64,000 nt of DNA from Escherichia coli. GTDB taxonomy: Bacteria > Pseudomonadota > Gammaproteobacteria > Enterobacterales > Enterobacteriaceae. Location: assembly GCF_024700885.2 (NCBI RefSeq), contig NZ_CP117016.1, one strand, 5' to 3'. Each line of letters starts with the position of its first letter. Position 1 is the stretch's first letter. A program made the translations under genes and the position numbers. The notes beneath the pieces are model-generated. The model was not told where the DNA came from. It ran no database searches and saw nothing but the letters and a program-made list of their open reading frames with translations. Below are positions 9,024 to 26,555 of the stretch, piece by piece.

Positions 9024-11455
9024 TCCAGCCCCATCGCCCGCAAATGCTCGGCCACTTTCTCGCTCAACGCCTCAACGGAGGCTTCAAGCGCTAGCAACGG
9101 TTCAGCATAACGCTCTTCCAGCTCCTTTACGCGCGACGCCAGTTGCTGGGTAATACGCTCAATCTCCGCCTTGATCCCTGCCTGCAACGTTGCCAGCCAC
9201 TTATCCTGCACTACCAGCGTTTTAATCGCTGCTTCATCCAGCGTGGGATAATGTTTAAACACCGCCCGATCCAGCGCTTCTTGTGCGGCTTTCAGCGCTT
9301 TTTTCGCACTGGCTTCGGCCTTAATTAGCGCCAGGCAGCGGTTCAGCACTGCCAGCTCATCTGGGCCGGCAGTGGTTTTCTTTAACTGTGCTAGACGGGC
9401 ATTCACCAGCTTTTGCGTCACCTTATCTTTATCGTTCTTCGCCTCGGCCAGCAGATCCTCTTCACCTGCCTGCTCCTCGATGAATTCCACTAGCTGACGA
9501 CTGGCTTCTTCACTGCGCTCCTGCGCGCGGTTCAGCGCATCCAGCAGTTCCGGGAAACAGCGAATTTCCACCAGCGAACGGGGCAGCACATCGGCCTTGT
9601 AGCGCCGTTTGGTAAACTCGAAATCGTGCGTTTCTTTCCAGATGTTTTTGCCATCTTTGCCTTTCACCGGCTGAAGCTCGCGGATTTGCGCGGCGGCTTG
9701 CCAGCCATCCTGCATAATCGCATACACATCGTCTTGCATGACATCAGTCCAGTAATCCATCAGGATCTGGTACACGCTGTATTTGTTCAGCAACTCACTG
9801 TTGGCGTACTGCGCCAATAGCATTTCGCTGATATCGTGGATTAGCGCTTTGGGTTTATCACCTTTGCGAATCTCTTCCAGACTTGCCTCTTTCACCCACG
9901 CTTTAAACGGTAGCAGGCTGCGGGTGGCAAAATCCTTAAACTCCTGATGCGCCAGAATGGTCGGTTTCACCTGTTGCGCGTTCACCTGCGCCCGACAGTA
10001 ACCGGGACGGTCGTCAGCAAACAGCACGTTGCGCAGGGCAGGGAATACCCGCCAGTAATCTTGCAAAGCATCCACATCGCGTGCCGGAATACCGCCCTGT
10101 AAGTGCGCGGTCAGATCGTGTAAATCTTCCGGCTCGCCGCTCTCGATATAGCGAGGAATATTCAGGTTGTAATCATTTCCGGCGATCTCGCTGGAGGGCA
10201 CCATCCGGCTGTAGCCAGGTACCGTTCGCTGATGGTTGAACACGTCCACAATGCGGTGAATATCTCGGCTACGCAGGCGGTTCTTGTTGCCATCTTTGAT
10301 AAAGCCCCGGCTGGCGTCGATCATAAAAATGCCTTTGCGGCTGTGGGCGTGCTCTTTATCAATCACAATGATGCACGCCGGGATGCCGGTGCCGTAAAAC
10401 AGGTTGGCTGGCAAACCAATAACGCCTTTGATATAGCCCTGCTTGATTAGATTTTCACGGATATTCGCTTCGGCGTTACCGCGAAACAGTACGCCGTGGG
10501 GCAGGATCACCGCGCCTTTGCCGGTACTTTTCAGGCTTTTAATGATATGCAACAAAAAAGCATAATCGCCGTTTTTTTCCGGCGGAATACCCCAGCCGAA
10601 GCGTTCAAACGGATCTTTTTTCGGCGTCAGCCCGTTGGTCCAGTTTTTATTGGAAAAAGGCGGGTTCGCCACGGCAAAATCGAAGGCTTTCAGTTTGCCG
10701 TTCGCCTCTTTCCACTGCGGATCGCTCAGCGTATTGCCCTGCCAGATTTTCGCGGTGGCATTGTTATGCAGAATCATGTTCATCCGCGCCAGCGCACTGG
10801 TAGCGTTATCCATCTCCTGGCCGAAAATCGACAGTCCGCGCCGGGCTTCATCATTCACTTTCAACAGCAGCGAACCAGAGCCACAGGTTGGGTCATAAAC
10901 CGTTGCATCTTGCGGAGTATCGGGAGTAATACCAATCACCTTCGCCAGAATACGTGACACCTCCGCTGGAGTGTAAAACTGCCCTTTACTCTTACCGGAT
11001 TCGGTTGCGAAGTGACGCATCAGATATTCATAGGCATCGCCCAGCAGATCGTCGCCTTCGGCCCGGTTGCTGGAGAGATTTAACCCTTCAAAGATACCGA
11101 CAAGCTTGCTCAGGCGGTCAATCATTTCCTTGCCTTTGCCGAGCTTATCTTCGTCGTTAAAGTCGGCTTCGTCGATGACGCCCTTCAGGCCGTTCTCTTC
11201 CGCCAGCTTGTGGATGATTTTGTTGATTTTGTCGCCGATCTCTTTGTCATTTTTCAGCGCAACCATATCGTCAAAGCTGGCTCCTTTGGGTATCACGATC
11301 ATCCCGTAAGGATCGCCTTTATACTTATCGGAAACGTACTTCATAAACAGCAGGGTCAGTACATAGTCTTTGTACTGGCTGGCGTCCATCCCGCCACGCA
11401 GTTCGTCGCAGCTTGCCCACAGGGAAGAATAGAGTTCGGTTTTTTTGATAGCCAT
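9017..11455 (-). CDS. hsdM: Type I restriction-modification methyltransferase subunit (HsdM), long form with ~300-aa C-terminal coiled-coil extension
   Basis: 812 aa; HsdM N-terminal domain (MAIKKTELYSSLWASCDELRG...), AdoMet motif I DPTCGSGSLL and N6-adenine motif IV NPPF; C-terminal third is Ala/Glu/Lys/Leu-rich and predicted helical. Confidence 0.85.
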   Translation of the reverse strand: MAIKKTELYSSLWASCDELRGGMDASQYKDYVLTLLFMKYVSDKYKGDPYGMIVIPKGASFDDMVALKNDKEIGDKINKIIHKLAEENGLKGVIDEADFNDEDKLGKGKEMIDRLSKLVGIFEGLNLSSNRAEGDDLLGDAYEYLMRHFATESGKSKGQFYTPAEVSRILAKVIGITPDTPQDATVYDPTCGSGSLLLKVNDEARRGLSIFGQEMDNATSALARMNMILHNNATAKIWQGNTLSDPQWKEANGKLKAFDFAVANPPFSNKNWTNGLTPKKDPFERFGWGIPPEKNGDYAFLLHIIKSLKSTGKGAVILPHGVLFRGNAEANIRENLIKQGYIKGVIGLPANLFYGTGIPACIIVIDKEHAHSRKGIFMIDASRGFIKDGNKNRLRSRDIHRIVDVFNHQRTVPGYSRMVPSSEIAGNDYNLNIPRYIESGEPEDLHDLTAHLQGGIPARDVDALQDYWRVFPALRNVLFADDRPGYCRAQVNAQQVKPTILAHQEFKDFATRSLLPFKAWVKEASLEEIRKGDKPKALIHDISEMLLAQYANSELLNKYSVYQILMDYWTDVMQDDVYAIMQDGWQAAAQIRELQPVKGKDGKNIWKETHDFEFTKRRYKADVLPRSLVEIRCFPELLDALNRAQERSEEASRQLVEFIEEQAGEEDLLAEAKNDKDKVTQKLVNARLAQLKKTTAGPDELAVLNRCLALIKAEASAKKALKAAQEALDRAVFKHYPTLDEAAIKTLVVQDKWLATLQAGIKAEIERITQQLASRVKELEERYAEPLLALEASVEALSEKVAEHLRAMGLEW

Positions 11456-12732: not shown

Positions 12733-13677
12733 ATGGATTTAATTATGGAATGGAGATTTTTAGGTTCTCTATCAGAGGCCAGGAAATCTGGCTGTAGCGG
12801 AGTTTATCTTATTGTCCATAAAGGACTTTTCAGTCGTGTGGTTTACGTTGGGGTAAGTTGTAATGTAGGTAGAAGGATAACCGAACATTACGACGGTTAT
12901 CTTAGAGGAAATCGAACAATTTACGACGCTGGTCACGACGAAGACGTTTATCGCTTCATGTCAGCTTATAAAATTCATAACCACACAAAATACTATCAAG
13001 CCTTGGCGAATGATTATAAGATATGGGCATCTACCACAATGTATTCTGATTTGCCGAAAAACATGCTAGCAAAAAGCCAAACCTTTGATACTGATTGGCA
13101 GAGCATTGCATTAGAAAAATATATTCCTCAACTGGTAGTATGGGCCCTTCCAATGGCAAAGTACTGTTATTCAAATGCAAGCAGGATTGAAAGTGTAATC
13201 CAATCAAAGCTCATTAAATCTTTTGATTTGAGAGGTTTTTTTAATATAAAGCAATTAAGCATATTGGGTAAAATTGAATATCCCTATATGGAAAAGGTCA
13301 AAGTTTTCATTATTAACACACCTGATTTAGACCCGGCATCCCAGCTTATTTTTAGCAATCTATATAACAAAAAAACTGATAACAACTTCTGTAAAGAGTT
13401 CCGTTCACAATTTAAAAGCGAGATTTTTCAGAGGGAAAGTGAAACTCAGAGAAAGCGAACTATCAGGGAGCATAAGGTATCTCTTTATGAAAATTATGGC
13501 AAGCCTTGGACTTTAAAGGAAATGGAAAAACTTAGAGTCATGCTTGTCGATTTTGATTTGTCCCCGATAGAAATATCTGAGTATCTAGGAAGAGAGCCGC
13601 GCTCTATATCTAAAAAAATAAGCGAAAATGATAAAGTTACTAATTATAAATGGCGAGAGAGCGTCGGCTGGTTGTGA
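12733..13677 (+). CDS. Hypothetical protein with GIY-YIG-like nuclease N-terminus and HTH-like C-terminus, in an AT-rich segment
   Basis: 314 aa; N-terminus GVYLIVHKGLFSRVVYVGVSCNVGRRITEH resembles the GIY...YIG...R...H core of GIY-YIG nucleases such as I-TevI; C-terminal ...WTLKEMEKLRVMLVDFDLSPIEISEYLGREPRSISKKI resembles a helix-turn-helix; flanked by ~400 bp of AT-rich non-coding DNA. Confidence 0.55.
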   Translation: MDLIMEWRFLGSLSEARKSGCSGVYLIVHKGLFSRVVYVGVSCNVGRRITEHYDGYLRGNRTIYDAGHDEDVYRFMSAYKIHNHTKYYQALANDYKIWASTTMYSDLPKNMLAKSQTFDTDWQSIALEKYIPQLVVWALPMAKYCYSNASRIESVIQSKLIKSFDLRGFFNIKQLSILGKIEYPYMEKVKVFIINTPDLDPASQLIFSNLYNKKTDNNFCKEFRSQFKSEIFQRESETQRKRTIREHKVSLYENYGKPWTLKEMEKLRVMLVDFDLSPIEISEYLGREPRSISKKISENDKVTNYKWRESVGWL

Positions 13678-14879: not shown

Positions 14880-14925
14880 AAAACGATCGATAAAACAGGT
14901 ATCGATCGTTACCATCGATCGTTTA
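14880..14925 (+). promoter_or_regulatory. agn43 (flu) phase-variation switch: three closely spaced GATC Dam sites in the OxyR operator
   Basis: GATC at 14885-14888, 14904-14907 and 14917-14920, ~210 bp upstream of the Ag43 start, matching the known Dam/OxyR switch architecture. Confidence 0.75.
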
Positions 14926-15137
14926 TAGTGGTTAATGGTCTGCGAAAAGGCAGCTGAATCTCTTCATCATGCAGAACGGAATTGCACACAACGGACTGAT
15001 ACTTCTCTGGCGGATGAGAGAGGGGAAGCATTTATGTCCGGGAAAAACCACTTTATCTGACCATGCTGTTTTGTACCTGCCGGTATCCACATTTGTGGGT
15101 ACCGGCTTTTTTATTCACCCTCTGTAAGGAAAAGCTG

Positions 15138-17984
15138 ATGAAACGACATCTGAACACCAGCTACAGGCTGGTATGGAATCACATTACGGGCACCCTGGTG
15201 GTGGCTTCCGAACTGGCGCGCTCACGGGGAAAACGCACCGGTGTGGCGATTGCGCTGTCTCTTGCTGCTGTCACATCAGTTCCGGCACTGGCTGCTGACA
15301 CGGTTGTACAGGCGGGAGAAACCGTGAGCGGCGGAACACTGACAAATCATGACAACCAGATTGTTCTCGGTACGGCCAACGGAATGACCATCAGTACCGG
15401 TCTGGAGTATGGGCCGGATAACGAGGCCAATACCGGCGGGCAATGGATACAAAATGGCGGTATCGCCAACAACACTACTGTCACCGGTGGTGGTCTTCAG
15501 AGAGTGAATGCCGGAGGAAGCGTTTCAGACACGGTTATCAGTGCCGGAGGCGGACAGAGCCTTCAGGGGCAGGCAGTGAATACCACTCTGAACGGCGGTG
15601 AGCAGTGGGTACATGAAGGCGGGATTGCAACGGGTACCGTCATTAATGAGAAGGGCTGGCAGGCCGTCAAATCCGGCGCAATGGCAACCGACACGGTTGT
15701 GAATACCGGCGCGGAAGGGGGACCAGATGCAGAAAATGGTGATACCGGGCAGTTTGTTCGCGGAAATGCCGTACGTACCACCATCAATAAAAATGGTCGT
15801 CAGATTGTGGCTGTTGAAGGAACAGCAAATACCACTGTGGTTTATGCCGGCGGCGACCAGACGGTACACGGGCATGCGCTGGATACCACACTGAATGGCG
15901 GTTACCAGTATGTGCACAACGGAGGCACAGCCTCTGACACGGTTGTAAACAGTGACGGCTGGCAGATTGTCAAGGAAGGTGGTCTGGCGGATTTCACCAC
16001 CGTTAACCAGAAAGGCAAACTGCAGGTGAACGCCGGTGGTACAGCCACGAATGTCACCCTGAAACAGGGTGGAGCACTGGTCACCAGTACTGCGGCAACG
16101 GTTCTTGGCAGCAACCGTCTGGGCAATTTCACGGTGGAAAACGGTAAGGCTGACGGCGTTGTTCTGGAGTCCGGCGGTCGCCTGGATGTACTGGAAGGCC
16201 ATTCAGCGCAGAAAACACGGGTGGATGACGGCGGAACCCTGGCAGTGTCTGCCGGTGGTAAGGCAACAGATGTCACCATGACATCCGGTAGTGCCCTGAT
16301 TGCAGACAGTGGTGCCACTGTTGAGGGGACCAATGCCAGCGGTAAGTTCAGTATTGATGGCACATCCGGTCAGGCCAGCGGACTGCTGCTGGAAAATGGC
16401 GGCAGCTTTACGGTTAATGCCGGGGGACAGGCCAGCAACACCACTGTCGGACATCGTGGAACACTGATGCTGGCTGCCGGGGGAAGTCTGAGTGGCAGAA
16501 CACAGCTCAGTAAAGGCGCCAGCATGGTACTGAATGGTGATGTGGTCAGTACCGGCGATATTGTTAACGCAGGGGAGATTTACTTTGACAATCAGACAAC
16601 ACCGGATGCCGTACTGAGCCGTGCTGTTGCAAAAGGCGACTCCCCGGTAACGTTCCATAAACTGACAACCAGTAACCTCACCGGTCAGGGTGGCACCATC
16701 AATATGCGTGTTCGCCTTGATGGCAGCAATGCCTCTGACCAGCTGGTGATTAATGGTGGTCAGGCAACCGGCAAAACCTGGCTTGCGTTTACAAATGTCG
16801 GAAACAGCAACCTCGGGGTGGCAACCTCCGGACAGGGTATCCGGGTTGTGGATGCACAGAATGGCGCCACCACAGAAGAAGGTGCGTTTGCCCTGAGTCG
16901 CCCGCTTCAGGCCGGCGCCTTTAACTACACCCTGAACCGTGACAGCGATGAAGACTGGTACCTGCGCAGTGAAAATGCTTATCGTGCTGAAGTCCCCCTG
17001 TATACATCCATGCTGACACAGGCAATGGACTATGACCGGATTCTGGCAGGCTCCCGCAGCCATCAGACCGGTGTAAACGGTGAAAATAACAGCGTCCGTC
17101 TCAGCATTCAGGGCGGTCATCTCGGTCACGATAACAACGGCGGTATTGCCCGTGGAGCCACGCCGGAAAGCAGCGGCAGCTATGGCTTCGTCCGTCTGGA
17201 GGGTGACCTGCTCAGAACAGAGGTTGCCGGTATGTCTCTGACGACAGGGGTGTATGGTGCTGCAGGCCATTCTTCCGTTGATGTTAAGGATGATGACGGT
17301 TCCCGCGCCGGCACGGTCCGGGATGATGCCGGCAGCCTGGGCGGATACCTGAATCTGACACACACGTCCTCCGGCCTGTGGGCTGACATTGTGGCACAGG
17401 GAACCCGCCACAGCATGAAAGCGTCATCGGACAATAACGACTTCCGCGCCCGGGGCTGGGGCTGGCTGGGCTCACTGGAAACCGGTCTGCCCTTCAGTAT
17501 CACTGACAACCTGATGCTGGAGCCACAACTGCAGTACACCTGGCAGGGGCTCTCCCTGGATGACGGCCAGGATAACGCCGGTTATGTGAAGTTCGGGCAT
17601 GGCAGTACACAACATGTGCGTGCCGGCTTCCGTCTGGGCAGCCACAACGATATGACCTTTGGCGAAGGCACCTCATCCCGTGACACTCTGCGCGACAGTG
17701 CAAAACACCGTGTGAGTGAACTGCCGGTGAACTGGTGGGTACAGCCTTCTGTTATCCGCACTTTCAGCTCCCGGGGTGACATGAGCATGGGTACAGCCGC
17801 AGCCGGCAGTAACATGACGTTCTCACCCTCACAGAATGGCACATCACTGGACCTGCAGGCCGGACTGGAAGCCCGTGTCCGGGAAAATATCACCCTGGGC
17901 GTTCAGGCCGGTTATGCCCACAGCATCAACGGCAGCAGCGCTGAAGGTTATAGCAGTCAGGCCACGCTGAATGTGACCTTCTGA
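15138..17984 (+). CDS. flu: Antigen 43 self-associating autotransporter
   Basis: Signal peptide MKRHLNTSYRLVWNHITGTLVVASELARSRGKRTGVAIALSLAAVTSVPALA, repetitive passenger (…GGTA.NTT.N.GG.Q.V…) and C-terminal beta-barrel ending ...ATLNVTF. Confidence 0.9.
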   Translation: MKRHLNTSYRLVWNHITGTLVVASELARSRGKRTGVAIALSLAAVTSVPALAADTVVQAGETVSGGTLTNHDNQIVLGTANGMTISTGLEYGPDNEANTGGQWIQNGGIANNTTVTGGGLQRVNAGGSVSDTVISAGGGQSLQGQAVNTTLNGGEQWVHEGGIATGTVINEKGWQAVKSGAMATDTVVNTGAEGGPDAENGDTGQFVRGNAVRTTINKNGRQIVAVEGTANTTVVYAGGDQTVHGHALDTTLNGGYQYVHNGGTASDTVVNSDGWQIVKEGGLADFTTVNQKGKLQVNAGGTATNVTLKQGGALVTSTAATVLGSNRLGNFTVENGKADGVVLESGGRLDVLEGHSAQKTRVDDGGTLAVSAGGKATDVTMTSGSALIADSGATVEGTNASGKFSIDGTSGQASGLLLENGGSFTVNAGGQASNTTVGHRGTLMLAAGGSLSGRTQLSKGASMVLNGDVVSTGDIVNAGEIYFDNQTTPDAVLSRAVAKGDSPVTFHKLTTSNLTGQGGTINMRVRLDGSNASDQLVINGGQATGKTWLAFTNVGNSNLGVATSGQGIRVVDAQNGATTEEGAFALSRPLQAGAFNYTLNRDSDEDWYLRSENAYRAEVPLYTSMLTQAMDYDRILAGSRSHQTGVNGENNSVRLSIQGGHLGHDNNGGIARGATPESSGSYGFVRLEGDLLRTEVAGMSLTTGVYGAAGHSSVDVKDDDGSRAGTVRDDAGSLGGYLNLTHTSSGLWADIVAQGTRHSMKASSDNNDFRARGWGWLGSLETGLPFSITDNLMLEPQLQYTWQGLSLDDGQDNAGYVKFGHGSTQHVRAGFRLGSHNDMTFGEGTSSRDTLRDSAKHRVSELPVNWWVQPSVIRTFSSRGDMSMGTAAAGSNMTFSPSQNGTSLDLQAGLEARVRENITLGVQAGYAHSINGSSAEGYSSQATLNVTF

Positions 17985-18098
17985 TAATTCTGCATTGCCT
18001 CTCTGTGGTCCCGGTCATCATGACCGGGACCCGGACGGGGGAAAACGTTTCAGTGCCACATTCACTGGCATTCACAATAACATGATATTCATCACGGA

Positions 18099-20621
18099 GT
18101 GACTATGTTACAGATAGTCGGCGCGCTGATTCTGCTGATCGCAGGATTTGCCATTCTTCGCCTTTTGTTCAGAGCATTAACCAGCACAGCGTCTGCGCTG
18201 GCAGGGTTCGTATTGCTGTGTCTGTTCGGCCCGGCTTTACTGGCTGGCTATATCACTGAACGCATAACCCGGTTATTCCATATTCGCTGGCTGGCAGGCG
18301 TATTTCTGACGATTGCCGGAATGATTATCAGCTTCATGTGGGGACTTGATGGTAAACATATCGCACTGGAGGCTCATACTTTTGACTCTGTAAAATTTAT
18401 TCTGACCACCGCTCTCGCCGCTGGTCTGCTGGCTCTTCCCGTGCAGATAAGAACCATTCAGCAGAACGGGCTCACACCTGAAGATATCAGCAAGGAAATT
18501 AACGGGTATTACTGCTGTTTTTATACTGCTTTTTTCCTTATGGCGTGTTCTGCATACGCACCATTGATCGCATTGCAGTTCGATATTTCACCCTCACTGA
18601 TGTGGTGGGGCGGGTTGTTGTACTGGCTGGCTGCATTAGTGGCGCTGCTATGGGCGGCCAGCCAGATCCAGGCGCTGAAAAGACTGACCAGTGCCATCCG
18701 CCAGACACTGGAAGAACAACCGGTGCTCAACAGTAAATCGTGGCTGAGCAGTTTGCAAAACGATTACAGCCTTCCTGAAACGCTGACGGAGCGCATCTGG
18801 CTGACACTCATTTCACAACGGATTTCCCGGGGAGAACTGAGGGAATTTGAACTGGCAGACGGAAACTGGCTACTGGACAATGCCTGGTATGAAAGAAACA
18901 TGGCGGGTTTCAACGAAAAGCTGAGAGAGAGCCTGTCATTTACCCCTGATGAACTGAAAACCCTCTTCCGGAACCGCCTGAATTTATCACCGGAAGCGAA
19001 TGACGATTTTCTCGATCGTTGCCTGGACGGCGGTGACTGGTACCCCTTTTCAGAAGGCCGCCGTTTTGTATCATTCCACCACGTGGATGAGCTTCGTATC
19101 TGTGCCTCCTGCGGGCTGACAGAAGTACATCATGCCCCGGAAAATCATAAGCCGGATCCGGAATGGTACTGCTCCTCTCTTTGTCGCGAAACAGAAACAC
19201 TGTGTCAGGACATTTATGAACGTTCTTACACCGGTTTTATTTCCGATGCAACGGCGAATGGTCTGATTCTCATGAAACTGCCGGAAACCTGGAGTACAAA
19301 TGAGAAAATGTTTGCTTCCGGAGGGCAGGGACATGGGTTTGCCGCTGAACGGGGAAACCATATTGTCGACAGAGTCCGTCTGAAAAACGCACGGATCCTC
19401 GGTGATAATAATGCCAGAAATGGAGCAGACAGACTGGTCAGCGGAACAGAAATCCAGACGAAATATTGTTCAACTGCAGCCCGTAGCGTCGGTGCGGCAT
19501 TCGACGGACAAAACGGACAGTATCGTTACATGGGAAATCATGGTCCCATGCAACTGGAAGTCCCCCGTGATCAGTATGCCGGCGCTGTGGAAACCATGAA
19601 GAATAAGATCCGCGAAGGTAAAGTACCCGGTGTAACCGATCCCGCAGAAGCGTCCCGGCTGATTCGTCGGGGACATCTGACTTATACCCAGGCCCGTAAT
19701 ATCACCCGGTTCGGGACCATCGAATCGGTCACTTATGATATTGCCGAGGGGTCGGTTGTCAGTCTGGCGGCCGGAGGGATCAGTTTTGCCCTGACGGCAT
19801 CGGTCTTCTGGCTCAGCACCGGCGATCGCGATGCTGCCCTGCAGACAGCTGCTGTCCAGGCAGGAAAAACCTTCACCCGCACACTGGCTGTCTACGTCAC
19901 AACCCAGCAACTTCACCGGCTCAGTGTTGTTCAGGGTATGCTGAAGCATATTGATTTTTCGACGGCCAGCCCGACTGTCCGGCAGGCGCTTCAGAAGGGG
20001 ACCGGTGCAGGAAATATCAGTGCCCTGAACAAAGTGATGAAGGGTACGCTGGTGACATCTCTGGCACTGGTAGCTGTCACAACCGGCCCTGACATGATCA
20101 AAATGTTGCGGGGACGGATCTCCGGTGCGCAGTTCATCAGGAATCTTGCCGTGGCATCTTCCGGTGTGGCAGGTGGTGCTGTCGGGTCAGTGGCGGGCGG
20201 GATATTGTTCAGTCCACTGGGACCATTTGGTGCACTGACAGGGCGTGTGGTTGGCGGTGTTCTGGGGGGAATGATTGCCTCCGCTGTATCAGGAAAAATT
20301 GCCGGAGCGCTGGTTGAAGAAGATCGCGTCAAAATTCTGGCAATGATTCAGGAGCAGGTGACATGGCTTGCCGGCAGTTTCCTGCTGACCGGACATGAGA
20401 TTGAAAATCTGAACGAGAATCTGGCCCGTGTTATCGATCAGAATGCTCTGGAGATCATTTTCGCCGCCGGTATACAACAACGGGCCGCGACCAATATGTT
20501 AATCAAACCACTGGTGGTCAGTATCATCAGGCAACGCCCCGTCATGGAATATGATGCATCCCATCTCGGCAATATGGTTAACCGACTGGAAGAAGCATTA
20601 CCCCCGGAGTTACCGGCATAA
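18099..20621 (+). CDS. yeeR: YeeR-like inner-membrane protein, full length
   Basis: 840 aa; N-terminal hydrophobic helices, internal Cys cluster (CASCGL...CSSLC), C-terminal Gly-rich hydrophobic region; positioned after flu as in CP4-44. Confidence 0.65.
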   Translation: MTMLQIVGALILLIAGFAILRLLFRALTSTASALAGFVLLCLFGPALLAGYITERITRLFHIRWLAGVFLTIAGMIISFMWGLDGKHIALEAHTFDSVKFILTTALAAGLLALPVQIRTIQQNGLTPEDISKEINGYYCCFYTAFFLMACSAYAPLIALQFDISPSLMWWGGLLYWLAALVALLWAASQIQALKRLTSAIRQTLEEQPVLNSKSWLSSLQNDYSLPETLTERIWLTLISQRISRGELREFELADGNWLLDNAWYERNMAGFNEKLRESLSFTPDELKTLFRNRLNLSPEANDDFLDRCLDGGDWYPFSEGRRFVSFHHVDELRICASCGLTEVHHAPENHKPDPEWYCSSLCRETETLCQDIYERSYTGFISDATANGLILMKLPETWSTNEKMFASGGQGHGFAAERGNHIVDRVRLKNARILGDNNARNGADRLVSGTEIQTKYCSTAARSVGAAFDGQNGQYRYMGNHGPMQLEVPRDQYAGAVETMKNKIREGKVPGVTDPAEASRLIRRGHLTYTQARNITRFGTIESVTYDIAEGSVVSLAAGGISFALTASVFWLSTGDRDAALQTAAVQAGKTFTRTLAVYVTTQQLHRLSVVQGMLKHIDFSTASPTVRQALQKGTGAGNISALNKVMKGTLVTSLALVAVTTGPDMIKMLRGRISGAQFIRNLAVASSGVAGGAVGSVAGGILFSPLGPFGALTGRVVGGVLGGMIASAVSGKIAGALVEEDRVKILAMIQEQVTWLAGSFLLTGHEIENLNENLARVIDQNALEIIFAAGIQQRAATNMLIKPLVVSIIRQRPVMEYDASHLGNMVNRLEEALPPELPA

Positions 20622-20696
20622 CGGCTATTCTGCGCCTTTTACGCTTTATCACCTGATTTGTCAGTGTCATCGTCATGACTCAGAGAGGTAAATACC

Positions 20697-21152
20697 ATGA
20701 TTCACCTGTTCAAAACCTGCATGATTACCGCCTTCATTCTGGGGTTAACGTGGTCTGCCCCACTCCGGGCACAGGATCAACGTTACATCAGTATACGCAA
20801 TACAGATACGATATGGCTCCCGGGAAATATTTGTGCCTACCAGTTCCGGCTGGATAATGGCGGAAACGATGAAGGATTTGGCCCCCTCACCATCACTCTG
20901 CAACTCAAAGACAAATATGGTCAGACGCTGGTGACCAGAAAAATGGAAACGGAAGCCTTTGGTGACAGTAATGCCACGCGAACCACAGACGCATTTATGG
21001 AAACGGAGTGCGTGGAAAATGTCGCCACAACCGAAATCATTAAAGCAACTGAAGAAAGTAACGGCCATCGTGTCAGTCTGCCGTTATCGGTTTTTGATCC
21101 CCAGGACTACCATCCACTGCTGATTACCGTTTCCGGAAAAAATGTTAACTGA
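20697..21152 (+). CDS. Hypothetical secreted protein (signal peptide)
   Basis: 151 aa with N-terminal hydrophobic signal-like segment ...ITAFILGLTWSAPLRAQ; no family recognised. Confidence 0.55.
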   Translation: MIHLFKTCMITAFILGLTWSAPLRAQDQRYISIRNTDTIWLPGNICAYQFRLDNGGNDEGFGPLTITLQLKDKYGQTLVTRKMETEAFGDSNATRTTDAFMETECVENVATTEIIKATEESNGHRVSLPLSVFDPQDYHPLLITVSGKNVN

Positions 21153-21483
21153 TCCCTGAAGTCAGTTTCATGCTTCAGCCTCTGCCACAACGTATGGCAG
21201 AGGCTATTTATCAGGAGAAACCAGATATGCCGGGTTACACACAGAGTATGTCCTGGCTGAAGGATCTTTCTCATACGGGCAGACGGTGGCTGTCACAACA
21301 GCTTACCTTAATGTGCTTATTGAAGATGACCAGGTGCGCACTTCCGGCTGGTTATCCGCAACGCGGAAGGTCAGCGACGCTGGCGCTGCCGGAATACTGA
21401 ACCCTGTGCCGGAAAGCAGCTTAATGCGTGGCTCGCCAGTGAAGGGCTTCTCAGACAATAAACGTCATTGATTTCGTCCATCA

Positions 21484-21515
21484 GGCCGCGTCTTCTCCGG
21501 GAGACGCGGCTTTTT
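21484..21515 (+). terminator. Rho-independent terminator-like hairpin
   Basis: GCCGCGTCT ... AGACGCGGC stem followed by TTTTTT (21510-21515). Confidence 0.45.
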
Positions 21516-21561
21516 TCATTTATTACACCAGTAAATCTTAACCACCGATAAGGAGCAAAGT

Positions 21562-22383
21562 ATGCGATTAGCCAGTCGTTTTGGTTATGCTGCAAACCAG
21601 ATACGCCGTGACCGTCCACTGACACATGAAGAGCTGATGCACCATGTGCCGGGGATTTTCGGGGAAGATAAACACACGTCCCGAAGCCAGAACTATACGT
21701 ACATCCCCACCATCACCGTGCTGGAAAGTCTGCAGCGGGAAGGCTTCCAGCCATTCTTCGCCTGCCAGACCCGTGTGCGCGACCCGGGCCGTCGGGGATA
21801 CACAAAACACATGCTGCGTCTGCGGCGGGCCGGAGAGATAAACGGAGAACATGTCCCTGAAATTATTCTGCTCAACTCTCATGACGGTACCTCCAGCTAC
21901 CAGATGCTGCCGGGTTACTTCAGGTTCGTCTGCCAGAACGGGTGCGTCTGTGGTCAGTCTCTGGGGGAAGTGCGTGTTCCGCACCGGGGAAATGTAGTGG
22001 AGAAAGTTATCGAAGGGGCTTACGAGGTGGTGGGGGTTTTTGACCGGATAGAGGAGAAGCGTGATGCCATGCAGTCGCTGGTCCTGCCGCCACCGGCACG
22101 CCAGGCGCTGGCACAGGCGGCACTGACTTACCGTTATGGTGACGAACATCAGCCCGTCACCACCGCCGACATTCTGACGCCACGACGCCGGGAGGATTAC
22201 GGAAAGGACCTGTGGAGTGCTTATCAGACCATCCAGGAGAATATGCTGAAAGGGGGGATTTCCGGTCGCAGTGCCAGAGGAAAACGTATCCACACCCGTG
22301 CCATTCACAGCATCGACACCGACATTAAGCTCAACCGCGCATTGTGGGTGATGGCTGAAACGCTGCTGGAGAGTATGCGCTGA
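21562..22383 (+). CDS. DUF932-family protein (YfjQ/YafZ-like)
   Basis: 273 aa; position and sequence character match the DUF932 genes of CP4-type islands. Confidence 0.7.
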   Translation: MRLASRFGYAANQIRRDRPLTHEELMHHVPGIFGEDKHTSRSQNYTYIPTITVLESLQREGFQPFFACQTRVRDPGRRGYTKHMLRLRRAGEINGEHVPEIILLNSHDGTSSYQMLPGYFRFVCQNGCVCGQSLGEVRVPHRGNVVEKVIEGAYEVVGVFDRIEEKRDAMQSLVLPPPARQALAQAALTYRYGDEHQPVTTADILTPRRREDYGKDLWSAYQTIQENMLKGGISGRSARGKRIHTRAIHSIDTDIKLNRALWVMAETLLESMR

Positions 22384-22474
22384 TGCCGTTTCCCTGAAAG
22401 CGCAGTTCTGACTCACGTCTGTCCCTTCCCCCGGGATTTCTTCCATTCATTTACTTTTTATAAGGAATAATCTC

Positions 22475-22960
22475 ATGACAACCGTCTTGCATAATTCCAC
22501 CACTCCTTCTGTTTCCGTAACCGCTGCATCAGGGAATGACCAGCCTCAGCTGGTTGCCACCATAGTCCCTGATGAACAGCGCATCAGCTTCTGGCCGCAG
22601 CACTTTGGCCTCATTCCACAGTGGGTGGCCCTGGAGCCCCGTGTCTTCGGCTGGATGGACCGTCTGTGTGAAGACTACTGCGGTGGTATCTGGAATCTGT
22701 ACACCCTGAACAACGGCGGGGCATTTATGGCACCCGAACCGGATGACGATGATGACGAAACATGGGTACTGTTCAATGCCATGAACGGTAACCGCGCTGA
22801 AATGAGCCCGGAAGCCGCCGGCATTGCTGCCTGTCTGATGACGTACAGCCATCATGCCTGTCGTACGGAGTGTTATGCCATGACGGTCCATTATTACCGG
22901 TTGCGGGATTACGCCCTGCAGCATCCGGAATGCAGCGCCATTATGCGCATCATCGACTGA
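22475..22960 (+). CDS. Anti-restriction protein (ArdB/KlcA family, YfjX/YafX-like)
   Basis: 161 aa; acidic DDDDDE stretch and ...FGWMDRLCEDYCGGIWNLYTLNNGGAFMAP... typical of this family; position upstream of the radC-like gene. Confidence 0.75.
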   Translation: MTTVLHNSTTPSVSVTAASGNDQPQLVATIVPDEQRISFWPQHFGLIPQWVALEPRVFGWMDRLCEDYCGGIWNLYTLNNGGAFMAPEPDDDDDETWVLFNAMNGNRAEMSPEAAGIAACLMTYSHHACRTECYAMTVHYYRLRDYALQHPECSAIMRIID

Positions 22961-23452
22961 ATGGAGAGAAGCACAATGCAACAGCTTTCCTTTCTGCCCG
23001 GAGAGATGACGCCCGGCGAGCGCAGTCTCATTCTGCGGGCCCTGAAAACTCTGGACCGCCATCTTCATGAACCCGGCGTGGCCTTCACCTCCACCCGTGC
23101 GGCACGGGAATGGCTGATTCTGAACATGGCGGGACTGGAGCGTGAAGAATTCCGGGTGCTGTATCTGAATAACCAGAATCAACTGATTGCCGGTGAAACC
23201 CTCTTCACCGGCACCATCAACCGCACGGAAGTCCATCCCCGGGAAGTGATTAAACGCGCCCTGTACCACAATGCCGCTGCCGTGGTGCTGGCGCACAATC
23301 ACCCGTCCGGTGAAGTCACACCCAGCAAGGCAGACCGCCTTATCACGGAACGTCTGGTACAGGCACTGGGCCTGGTGGATATCCGGGTGCCGGACCATCT
23401 GATAGTCGGTGGCAACCAGGTTTTCTCCTTTGCCGAACATGGTCTGCTTTAA
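22961..23452 (+). CDS. yeeS: RadC-like JAB-domain protein (YeeS/YfjY/YkfG family)
   Basis: JAMM motif HNHPSGEVTPSKAD; alternative start at 22976 (MQQLSFLPGE). Confidence 0.85.
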   Translation: MERSTMQQLSFLPGEMTPGERSLILRALKTLDRHLHEPGVAFTSTRAAREWLILNMAGLEREEFRVLYLNNQNQLIAGETLFTGTINRTEVHPREVIKRALYHNAAAVVLAHNHPSGEVTPSKADRLITERLVQALGLVDIRVPDHLIVGGNQVFSFAEHGLL

Positions 23453-26467: not shown

Positions 26468-26555
26468 TGGCGGTGAGGGGGGGATTCGAACCCCCGATAC
26501 GTTGCCGTATACACACTTTCCAGGCGTGCTCCTTCAGCCACTCGGACACCTCACC
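26468..26555 (-). tRNA. serX: tRNA-Ser (anticodon GGA), serX-like
   Basis: Reverse complement reads GGTGAGGTGTCCGAGTGGCTGAAGGAGCACGCCTGGAAAGTGTG...GGGGGTTCGAATCCCCCCCTCACCGCCA: long variable arm, T-loop GGTTCGAATCC, CCA end, GGA anticodon. Confidence 0.95.

Follow-up and report, generated by a model that had tools for sequence, protein, structure and literature searches.

The yeeR gene was analyzed in a 64,000-nucleotide stretch of Escherichia coli DNA (assembly GCF_024700885.2, contig NZ_CP117016.1), hereafter called the window. The gene is intact and under purifying selection, and its product is predicted to be a functional inner-membrane protein of two parts. The fast-evolving N-terminal part, with six transmembrane (TM) helices, two winged helices and a zinc ribbon, would anchor the protein and might also bind nucleic acid or sense it. 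The conserved C-terminal part, YeeR_C, would be the working part, in which a cytoplasmic nuclease-like domain of the PD-(D/E)xK type is joined to four membrane helices with a glycine-zipper hairpin and is closed by a small helical domain. We tentatively read YeeR_C as a conflict effector of the nuclease type that is anchored in the membrane and serves defence or exclusion, an explanation that we regard as possible. Residues are numbered on the 838-aa protein throughout, and the coordinates of all features are collected in Table 1.

YeeR_C extends from about residue 400 to the end of the protein, after a linker helix that follows the zinc ribbon. Nearly all homologues listed, down to about 30% identity, carry the precomputed Pfam annotation PF27347 'YeeR_C', a family that is named after the uncharacterised gene yeeR and is the sole family match of the protein. 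Membership of the protein in the YeeR family is supported by 94% identity to the YeeR of K-12 over 507 aa and by an identical RefSeq product. In the local scans of the whole protein, Pfam (in a copy that predates the PF27347 model) gave only a C19orf12-like match under threshold (E = 0.013), PHROGs gave only a Gly-rich tape-measure match, and NCBIfam and the PDB sequences gave nothing significant. A match to a characterised family, which the first-pass annotation of this open reading frame (ORF) had named as evidence that would overturn it, was thus not found in local Pfam, NCBIfam, PHROGs or PDB sequences.

The alpha/beta domain that opens YeeR_C was examined by modelling residues 398-548 alone with 72 diverse sequences, which gave a pLDDT of 91 and a pTM of 0.86. 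The elements of the model follow in the order helix, three strands, helix, strand, helix, and the modelled domain thereby shows the alpha-beta-beta-beta-alpha-beta core of the PD-(D/E)xK superfamily. Across 215 homologues, H410, E415, N418, D422, D442, R443, Q451, K453, Y454, Y475, E485 and D489 of this domain are 94-100% conserved, as are D545, Q602, S673, Q676, D740, E765 and R811 further on. In the model, helix 1 carries E415, strand 3 carries Q451-x-K453 and strand 4 carries E485, with D442 at the beginning of strand 2, so that the invariant residues are predicted to fall where the PD-(D/E)xK fold keeps its active site. With regard to the (D/E)-x-K signature, D442 and K453 are invariant and correctly placed, and the middle acidic position is occupied by an invariant Gln (Q451). 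Judged from the model, the missing carboxylate could come from the invariant E415 and E485.

The Pfam scan of the protein showed no nuclease family, and none recurred in a permissive Pfam scan of the 72 domain sequences. The commonest weak match in the permissive scan, SecD_1st, was treated as chance, and so was L7Ae, the only match when the profile of the alpha/beta domain was searched against PDB sequences. A sequence-profile tie to any member family of the PD-(D/E)xK superfamily was likewise not found in Pfam, PDB sequences or NCBIfam. Because of the Gln in the motif and the lack of a profile link to a nuclease family, the domain is called nuclease-like here and not a nuclease. Compared with established PD-(D/E)xK nucleases (archaeal Hjc, Hachiman HamA, the Burkholderia CdiA-CT of structure 4g6v, and YaeQ), the YeeR domain differs in carrying Gln for Asp/Glu, in having no detectable sequence relationship to them, and in being covalently joined to membrane helices on both sides.

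The membrane region of YeeR_C contains four hydrophobic segments that are conserved in the family-averaged hydropathy, at about residues 550-568 and 649-667 and two within 680-733. The last stretch (nt 20142-20303) is a nearly charge-free run of about 50 residues, half of them Gly, Ala or Ser, and reads as two glycine-zipper helices. The first-pass annotation had described a Gly-rich hydrophobic C-terminus; the stretch itself was found, but it does not form the extreme end of the protein, since a helical domain of about 100 residues follows it. The zinc-ribbon character of the Cys cluster had been missed in that annotation, as had the nuclease-like domain, situated after this cluster and before the Gly-rich region. 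Weak matches of the membrane region were obtained to C19orf12-like, PDC-M09B and LeoB models. The glycine-zipper segments of C19orf12-like proteins and of LeoB, from the Eleos/dynamin-like system, resemble residues 680-733 in their consecutive, almost uncharged small-xxx-small helices. These C19orf12-like and LeoB matches are below the curated thresholds and probably compositional, and no common domain exists outside 680-733.

The glycine-zipper region allows another explanation, in which YeeR_C would mainly permeabilise the membrane, with glycine-zipper hairpins that form or gate a pore. The nuclease-like domain would then have no catalytic role and would serve as a regulator or as a sensor that binds nucleic acid or a nucleotide signal. 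The uncharged hairpin is kept family-wide with the invariant polar residues S673, Q676, K/R679 and N680 just before it, the (D/E)xK motif has Gln in place of its acidic residue, and the NCBI name of a Lactococcus homologue is 'glycine zipper family protein'. The weak matches to C19orf12-like proteins, LeoB and the Gly-rich regions of tape-measure proteins point the same way, although such Gly-rich matches are prone to compositional bias and the model has low confidence there. The alpha/beta domain has about a dozen near-invariant polar residues, among them E, D, K and E in the canonical catalytic positions; this number argues against a purely binding function, which usually needs fewer. We consider a pore as the main activity unlikely.

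The N-terminal half was examined in a full-length AlphaFold2 (AF2) model built on 71 homologues, with a mean pLDDT of 80.7. Six TM helices span about residues 2-186 according to the model and hydropathy, in agreement with the N-terminal TM helices proposed at first pass; together with the four membrane helices of YeeR_C, this is the predicted topology of the protein. In 37 homologues, the loops after TM2, TM4 and TM6 contain on average 10.9 Lys and Arg residues, compared with 3.4 in the alternate loops. This positive-inside count favours an N-in, C-in topology with the residues after TM6 in the cytoplasm. An even count of membrane passes would then place the nuclease-like domain and residues 738-831 on one side of the membrane. 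The predicted Cys cluster also held up: C333, C336, C356 and C360 are kept in 100% of the 37 full-length homologues in a zinc-ribbon-like arrangement. Among full-length homologues, the N-terminal 400 residues share 17-30% identity and YeeR_C shares 50-74%. A Foldseek search of the full-length model against the PDB gave nothing at E <= 0.001 and only weak winged-helix matches.

A remote relationship to a candidate defence protein was detected by profile methods. YeeR matched the PADLOC model of PDC-M09B weakly in hmmscan (E = 1.6e-5), and a stand-alone YeeR_C protein matched it over nearly its whole length (E = 1.7e-6); for scale, a true PDC-M09B scores E = 1e-214 on its own model. An hhalign comparison of YeeR_C with PDC-M09B gave 94% probability and E = 1.4e-7, with a 55-column core of ADRxVxGxxIQxKY ... 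EVPxDQY. BLASTP found no significant similarity between the two, the relationship being visible to profile methods only, and the precomputed Pfam annotation PF27347 was on none of the PDC-M09B relatives listed. These profile comparisons indicate that YeeR_C is a remote homologue of PDC-M09B and not a member of that family. Both proteins have HG-x-x-AE, D-x(7-8)-Q-S/T-K-F/Y and (V/I)P-K/R-D motifs followed by a Gly-rich hydrophobic region. PDC-M09B differs in its length of about 480 aa, in having no N-terminal TM, winged-helix or zinc-ribbon module, and in always occurring with PDC-M09A, a coiled-coil, Gly-rich partner that the window does not contain.

In Enterobacter and Serratia, the two kinds of protein occur together in a same-strand cluster with gaps of 2-39 bp, in the order WYL regulator, PDC-M09A (E = 1e-119), PDC-M09B (E = 1e-214) and, last, full-length YeeR. 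Such clusters, with two distantly related nuclease-like membrane proteins in tandem, were seen at locus L015 (3562-9329) and also at L019 and L026. The PDC-M09A partner was found in these Enterobacter and Serratia loci only and not beside yeeR of the window, where agn43 lies upstream and irmA downstream. The PDC systems are 145 untested candidates that were proposed from their embedding in restriction-modification (R-M), BREX or DISARM loci (bioRxiv 10.1101/2024.01.29.577857). The link of YeeR to defence through PDC-M09 is suggestive and not a proof. Literature searches on PDC-M09 and on yeeR with defence terms found no paper, and no experimental data on phage protection by YeeR were found in the searched literature.

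The distribution of YeeR_C was determined with an exhaustive HMMER search of 1.84 billion representative proteins, in which 1158 clusters at 50% identity contained the domain at E <= 0.001. The N-terminal TM module is present in 103 of 214 near-complete copies; a further 40 essentially stand alone, and 71 have other extensions, including Sel1 or TPR repeats, a TM2 domain and choline-binding repeats. Sel1 and TPR repeats, which are protein-binding modules, are often fused to YeeR_C or encoded beside it. In a pattern-limited scan of one genome per species, 214 stretches encoding a relative were found in many phyla. The full-length forms occur in Gamma- and Betaproteobacteria, and shorter forms in Clostridia, Bacilli, Veillonellales, Lentisphaerae, Riflebacteria, Campylobacterota, Chlamydiae and Acidobacteria. 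Matches were present in 5 of 2.9 million viral contigs, in 1 of 50,697 phage records and in 11 of 72,556 plasmid records, several of these several megabases long. At these counts, both a phage gene and a plasmid-borne gene were rejected as descriptions of the family.

The neighbourhoods of YeeR_C genes vary from locus to locus, often with integrases, insertion sequence (IS) elements, HicAB or a TIR protein, and this variation fits a self-contained cassette. The only recurrent neighbour was a helix-turn-helix (HTH)-WYL-WCX regulator directly upstream of the YeeR_C gene, in 12 of 78 loci. Firmicutes copies of the YeeR_C gene are directly bordered on either side by small unannotated ORFs, and 8 loci have a gene for a 650-aa Sel1-repeat protein after it. 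The first 31 loci yielded 143 neighbour proteins, counted without a background set, with seven WYL proteins, three each of PDC-M09A, PDC-M09B and MkoA-like proteins, and two each of PD-T4-6-like kinases and mad6. Two single loci were also recorded. The conjugative dairy plasmid pNCDO184A of Lactococcus (locus L104, 5940-9780) carries a WYL gene followed by a YeeR_C homologue, annotated 'glycine zipper family protein', flanked by IS6 and with an abortive infection (Abi) gene near. In the temperate Oscillospirales phage PV036458 (locus L105, 5401-7353), a YeeR_C homologue lies between the endolysin and a DNA invertase.

A service to the island itself was also considered, in which YeeR would process DNA for excision or transfer, or exclude the entry of related elements, and would not act against phages. 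E. coli yeeR is always found in tRNA-associated islands, beside the typical block of DUF932, antirestriction, RadC-JAB, DUF987 and YeeU/CbtA genes; homologues adjoin integrases, resolvases and relaxase fragments, and one is on a conjugative plasmid. A membrane protein that combines winged helices, a zinc ribbon and a nuclease-like domain would suit such a task as well. Full-length homologues in Methylomonas, Pseudomonas and others nevertheless stand alone with no transfer genes near, the family is nearly absent from plasmids (the 11 records mentioned above, several of them multi-megabase), and K-12-type islands persist without the C-terminal half of YeeR. A role of this kind is therefore rather improbable.

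The small genes coupled to YeeR_C in some lineages could be immunity proteins or antitoxins, which would make YeeR_C the toxin of a toxin-immunity or bacteriocin-like system. No signal peptide was seen in the sequences inspected, and the Pfam annotations and scans gave no known toxin-delivery domain. The conserved unit measures about 430 aa and continues into membrane helices beyond the nuclease-like domain, unlike C-terminal toxin tips, and proteobacterial YeeR lacks a conserved small partner. YeeR does not fit CdiA-CT-like toxins, which have a delivery N-terminus, a toxin tip at the extreme C-terminus and an immunity gene, whereas YeeR has a six-TM N-terminus and about 300 conserved residues after the nuclease-like domain. 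In E. coli, the downstream gene encodes the secreted, FNIII-like IrmA, whose release is independent of YeeR (PMC4807369). We regard a toxin-immunity system as very unlikely, and this explanation also overlaps with the abortive-infection version of a conflict effector.

In the explanation that we prefer, YeeR_C proteins would be self-contained effectors of mobile elements that act in genetic conflict by defence, exclusion or abortive infection. YeeR_C would cleave nucleic acid on the cytoplasmic side of the membrane, and its glycine zipper might perturb the membrane as well. A WYL-type repressor would restrain it in many lineages, and in E. coli the phase-variable agn43 promoter would take the place of WYL. 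Membrane-associated anti-phage nucleases that act on entering DNA serve as a working analogy only, and membership of YeeR among them is not claimed. The integrity of the gene, the purifying selection, the domain layout, the resemblance in fold, the invariant residues and the genomic contexts are observed, and the cytoplasmic topology, catalysis, its substrate and any part in defence are inferred from them.

Several observations weigh against a nuclease-type effector. The invariant Gln at the acidic position of the (D/E)xK motif would suit a domain that is non-catalytic or works by another chemistry. Confidence in the AF2 model is lowest for the membrane region, with pLDDT <50 for residues 688-731, and the topology is only inferred. 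Defence genes are near some YeeR_C loci and are not dominant, in counts that have no background set. E. coli yeeR has neither a WYL regulator nor a PDC-M09 partner, and its neighbours encode an adhesin and a secreted immune-mimic protein. In two homologues, C-terminal choline-binding repeats point to an extracellular C-terminus or to a released protein.

The integrity of the gene was confirmed on several lines. The ORF is uninterrupted on the + strand from a GTG at 18099 to 20621 (840 codons), as proposed at first pass, and the upstream sequence reads ACGGAGTGACTATG. The ATG at 18105 is preferred as the start because a GGAG Shine-Dalgarno sequence is present 6 bases ahead of it; the GTG at 18099 overlaps this GGAG. 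The sequence thus likely encodes 838 aa. The RefSeq coding sequence (CDS) also begins at 18105, and its product, WP_001531238.1, is an identical protein of 838 aa whose name varies between genomes, being either 'YeeR family protein' or 'hypothetical protein'.

The DNA of yeeR is 100% identical in at least 12 complete E. coli genomes. Of 5426 complete E. coli genomes, 2582 have some match to yeeR and 1800 contain 80% or more of it, and the protein cluster at 90% identity has 15,556 member sequences. Four divergent alleles (96.7-98.5% nucleotide identity, or 1.5-3.3% DNA difference) are all intact at 838 aa, and the ratio of nonsynonymous to synonymous substitution rates (dN/dS) across them is 0.15-0.25. 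Since identical copies are present in many genomes, the cluster is large and the divergent alleles are intact, the frame is no accident of sequencing or assembly. The frameshift that would have undone the first-pass description is absent. A decaying pseudogene was rejected on the dN/dS values together with the intact alleles.

The E. coli alleles are mosaic (window 18105-20621 against loci L100-L103), with a dS of about 0.137 in codons 1-395 and of 0.02-0.04 in codons 396-838. This pattern suggests recombination, or separate histories of the N-terminal module and YeeR_C. A yeeR match of 151 aa, 100% identical to E. coli, was also found in a 4-kb contig (JAHAYL010000019.1) of a metagenome-assembled genome named 'Oxalobacter sp.'; this contig is probably a piece of E. 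coli DNA that was misassigned in binning.

The first-pass annotation had described the gene as the intact, long form of a CP4-type island gene that is shorter or annotated as a pseudogene in K-12, and comparison with K-12 supports this. The gene is the yeeR of a CP4-44-type island. K-12 YeeR (b2001, 510 aa) is a version of this protein truncated behind residue ~507: it aligns to residues 1-507 (3-509 of the 840-aa ORF) with 94% identity, is encoded directly after flu/agn43 in the same type of island, and ends 3 unrelated residues past the aligned part. In a blastn comparison of the window with MG1655 (NC_000913.3), a 3.4-kb segment (19626-22999) was missing from K-12, and K-12 YeeR is shorter because of this deletion. 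The deletion took the last 331 codons of yeeR, irmA, the DUF905, DUF932 and antirestriction genes and the 5' end of yeeS, and it fuses yeeR to yeeS. The K-12 protein retains the TM module, the winged helices, the zinc ribbon and most of the nuclease-like domain, including the catalytic-looking residues, whereas all four membrane helices of YeeR_C and the C-terminal domain are gone. Because the K-12 protein is without the membrane half of YeeR_C, experiments in K-12 cannot reveal the role of complete YeeR.

K-12 yeeR has been called a pseudogene in one K-12 study (PMC8614746) and truncated or disrupted in two other papers (PMC6480617; PMC4807369). The first-pass statement that no function is assigned also agrees with the literature, in which YeeR is 'uncharacterized' both in PMC4807369 and in the 2024 revision of the y-ome (PMC11551758). 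The presence of intact yeeR in pathogenic and many commensal E. coli has been reported already. The contrast between an intact yeeR and the K-12 deletion remnant, with the function listed as unknown, is thus already known, and this first finding is ordinary. New here, as deductions from the comparisons above, would be the domain layout, the spread of YeeR_C as a self-contained gene in variable or mobile regions with recurrent WYL-type regulators upstream, the kinship to PDC-M09B, and the cluster shared with PDC-M09 in Enterobacter and Serratia.

Table 1. Coordinates of yeeR, of the predicted parts of its product and of adjacent features in the window
Feature	Position	Strand	Basis
yeeR CDS, 838 aa plus stop	18105..20621	+	ORF list, GGAG, RefSeq coordinates
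N-terminal membrane module, residues 1-186, six hydrophobic helices	18105..18662	+	AF2 pLDDT 85-97, hydropathy
Tandem winged-helix-like domains, residues ~205-330	18717..19094	+	
Four-Cys zinc-ribbon-like motif, C333-x2-C336 ... C356-x3-C360, plus C367	19101..19205	+	conservation
Alpha/beta domain opening YeeR_C, residues ~405-538, PD-(D/E)xK nuclease-like fold (predicted)	19317..19718	+	model
Candidate active-site codons	E415 19347, D442 19428, Q451 19455, K453 19461, E485 19557	+	
Membrane-embedded helical region, residues 539-737	19719..20315	+	family hydropathy/charge, AF2 helices
C-terminal helical domain, residues 738-831, invariant D740, E765, R811	20316..20597	+	AF2 pLDDT 70-87
Segment absent in K-12 MG1655: YeeR 508-838, irmA, DUF905, DUF932, antirestriction, yeeS 5' end	19626..22999	.	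blastn, annotation of both loci
agn43 regulatory region	14883..15119	+	GATC at 14885, 14904, 14917; IsrC/IS102 match
agn43 (Ag43/Cah autotransporter), gene upstream of yeeR	15138..17984	+	RefSeq
25-nt perfect palindrome GGTCCCGGTCATCATGACCGGGACC, agn43-yeeR spacer	18007..18031	+	sequence
irmA (interleukin receptor mimic protein A), downstream of yeeR	20697..21152	+	Pfam IrmA E = 1.6e-37; RefSeq

The expression of yeeR appears to be tied to that of agn43. In strain EC958, agn43, yeeR and irmA were placed on one transcript by reverse-transcription PCR (PMC4807369), and in K-12 flu and yeeR are under congruent OxyR control (PMC8614746). The agn43 regulatory region matches the IsrC/IS102 RNA (Rfam RF00124, 72.3 bits). 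This match and the three GATC sites fit the published phase variation of agn43 by Dam and OxyR (as cited in PMC4807369), and the known switch ahead of agn43 should, from the gene order, govern yeeR too. The three GATC sites were seen to sit within short inverted repeats.

The 120-nt spacer between agn43 and yeeR folds at -45.7 kcal/mol (z = -3.8). The palindrome at 18007-18031 has no T tail, and terminator calling gave none there; it may be an attenuator or a stabiliser. In K-12, loss of gcvB raised flu 63.6-fold and yeeR only 4.6-fold (PMC8614746), a difference that may reflect partial attenuation at the palindrome.

The shared transcript also allows YeeR to be an accessory factor for Ag43 and IrmA, in biogenesis, secretion, aggregation or virulence. 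Besides the co-transcription in EC958 (PMC4807369) and the common OxyR control (PMC8614746), agn43, yeeR and irmA co-occur across pathotypes and correlate with extra copies of hha (PMC6480617). IrmA was nevertheless found in the supernatant of MG1655agn43, a strain without a functional copy of agn43, yeeR or irmA, and a role of YeeR in IrmA secretion was rejected for this reason (PMC4807369). Furthermore, irmA has its own promoter in strain 042, K-12 makes functional Ag43 despite its truncated YeeR, and YeeR homologues outside Enterobacteriaceae have neither Ag43 nor IrmA as a neighbour. Because IrmA release is independent of YeeR and homologues elsewhere lack both neighbours, an accessory function is disfavoured and seems hardly probable.

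A nuclease-type effector under the agn43 switch leads to a broader proposal, which we consider doubtful at present. YeeR_C would be a widespread, unrecognised class of single-polypeptide, membrane-integrated PD-(D/E)xK nucleases against phages or plasmids, switched in E. coli together with Ag43, and immunity would be coupled to the aggregated, high-density state. The gain from the analysis is a concrete hypothesis for a gene that is present in about one third of complete E. coli genomes and is co-transcribed with a major phase-variable adhesin. Its content, drawn largely from the models, is a putative nuclease-like centre with named residues, a glycine-zipper unit, kinship to a defence candidate and a frequent WYL gene upstream. 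The conserved half of YeeR resembles, in the models, an enzyme that cuts DNA or RNA and is integrated in the cell membrane, and an uncharacterised gene thus gains a testable function.

The island that carries yeeR is inserted at a tRNA-Ser gene (26468-26555), beside ghrA, and is of the serX type described for CFT073 (PMC4807369). The order of genes begins with a type I R-M locus with darTG on the - strand, followed by hypothetical genes, a gene for a YeeP-like GTPase, agn43, yeeR and irmA. Downstream of irmA follow DUF905, DUF932, antirestriction, RadC-JAB (yeeS), DUF987, yeeU/cbtA, DUF5983, DUF957 and DUF4942 genes. The DUF905 gene (21170-21471) consists of two overlapping ORFs of 76 and 61 aa and is marked as frameshifted by RefSeq in an identical genome region.

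The R-M locus with its embedded DarTG lies 6.6 kb upstream of yeeR. It comprises hsdR (2836-5931), hsdS (7683-9017) and hsdM (9017-11455) on the - strand, with the toxin-antitoxin pair DarT (7014-7670) and DarG (5950-7017) between hsdR and hsdS and a YgjP-like M48 peptidase (2120-2836) abutting hsdR. As a whole (2120-11455, -), the locus is an example of the 'embedded defence gene' arrangement. Upstream of the gene for the YeeP-like GTPase, a 314-aa ORF (12733-13677) is hypothetical in RefSeq and matched nothing in Pfam. At its left end (213-1640), the window has an autotransporter fragment and IS remnants, the latter annotated as pseudogenes of the IS5 and IS600 families in the matching RefSeq record; this segment is a decayed part of the yeeR island.

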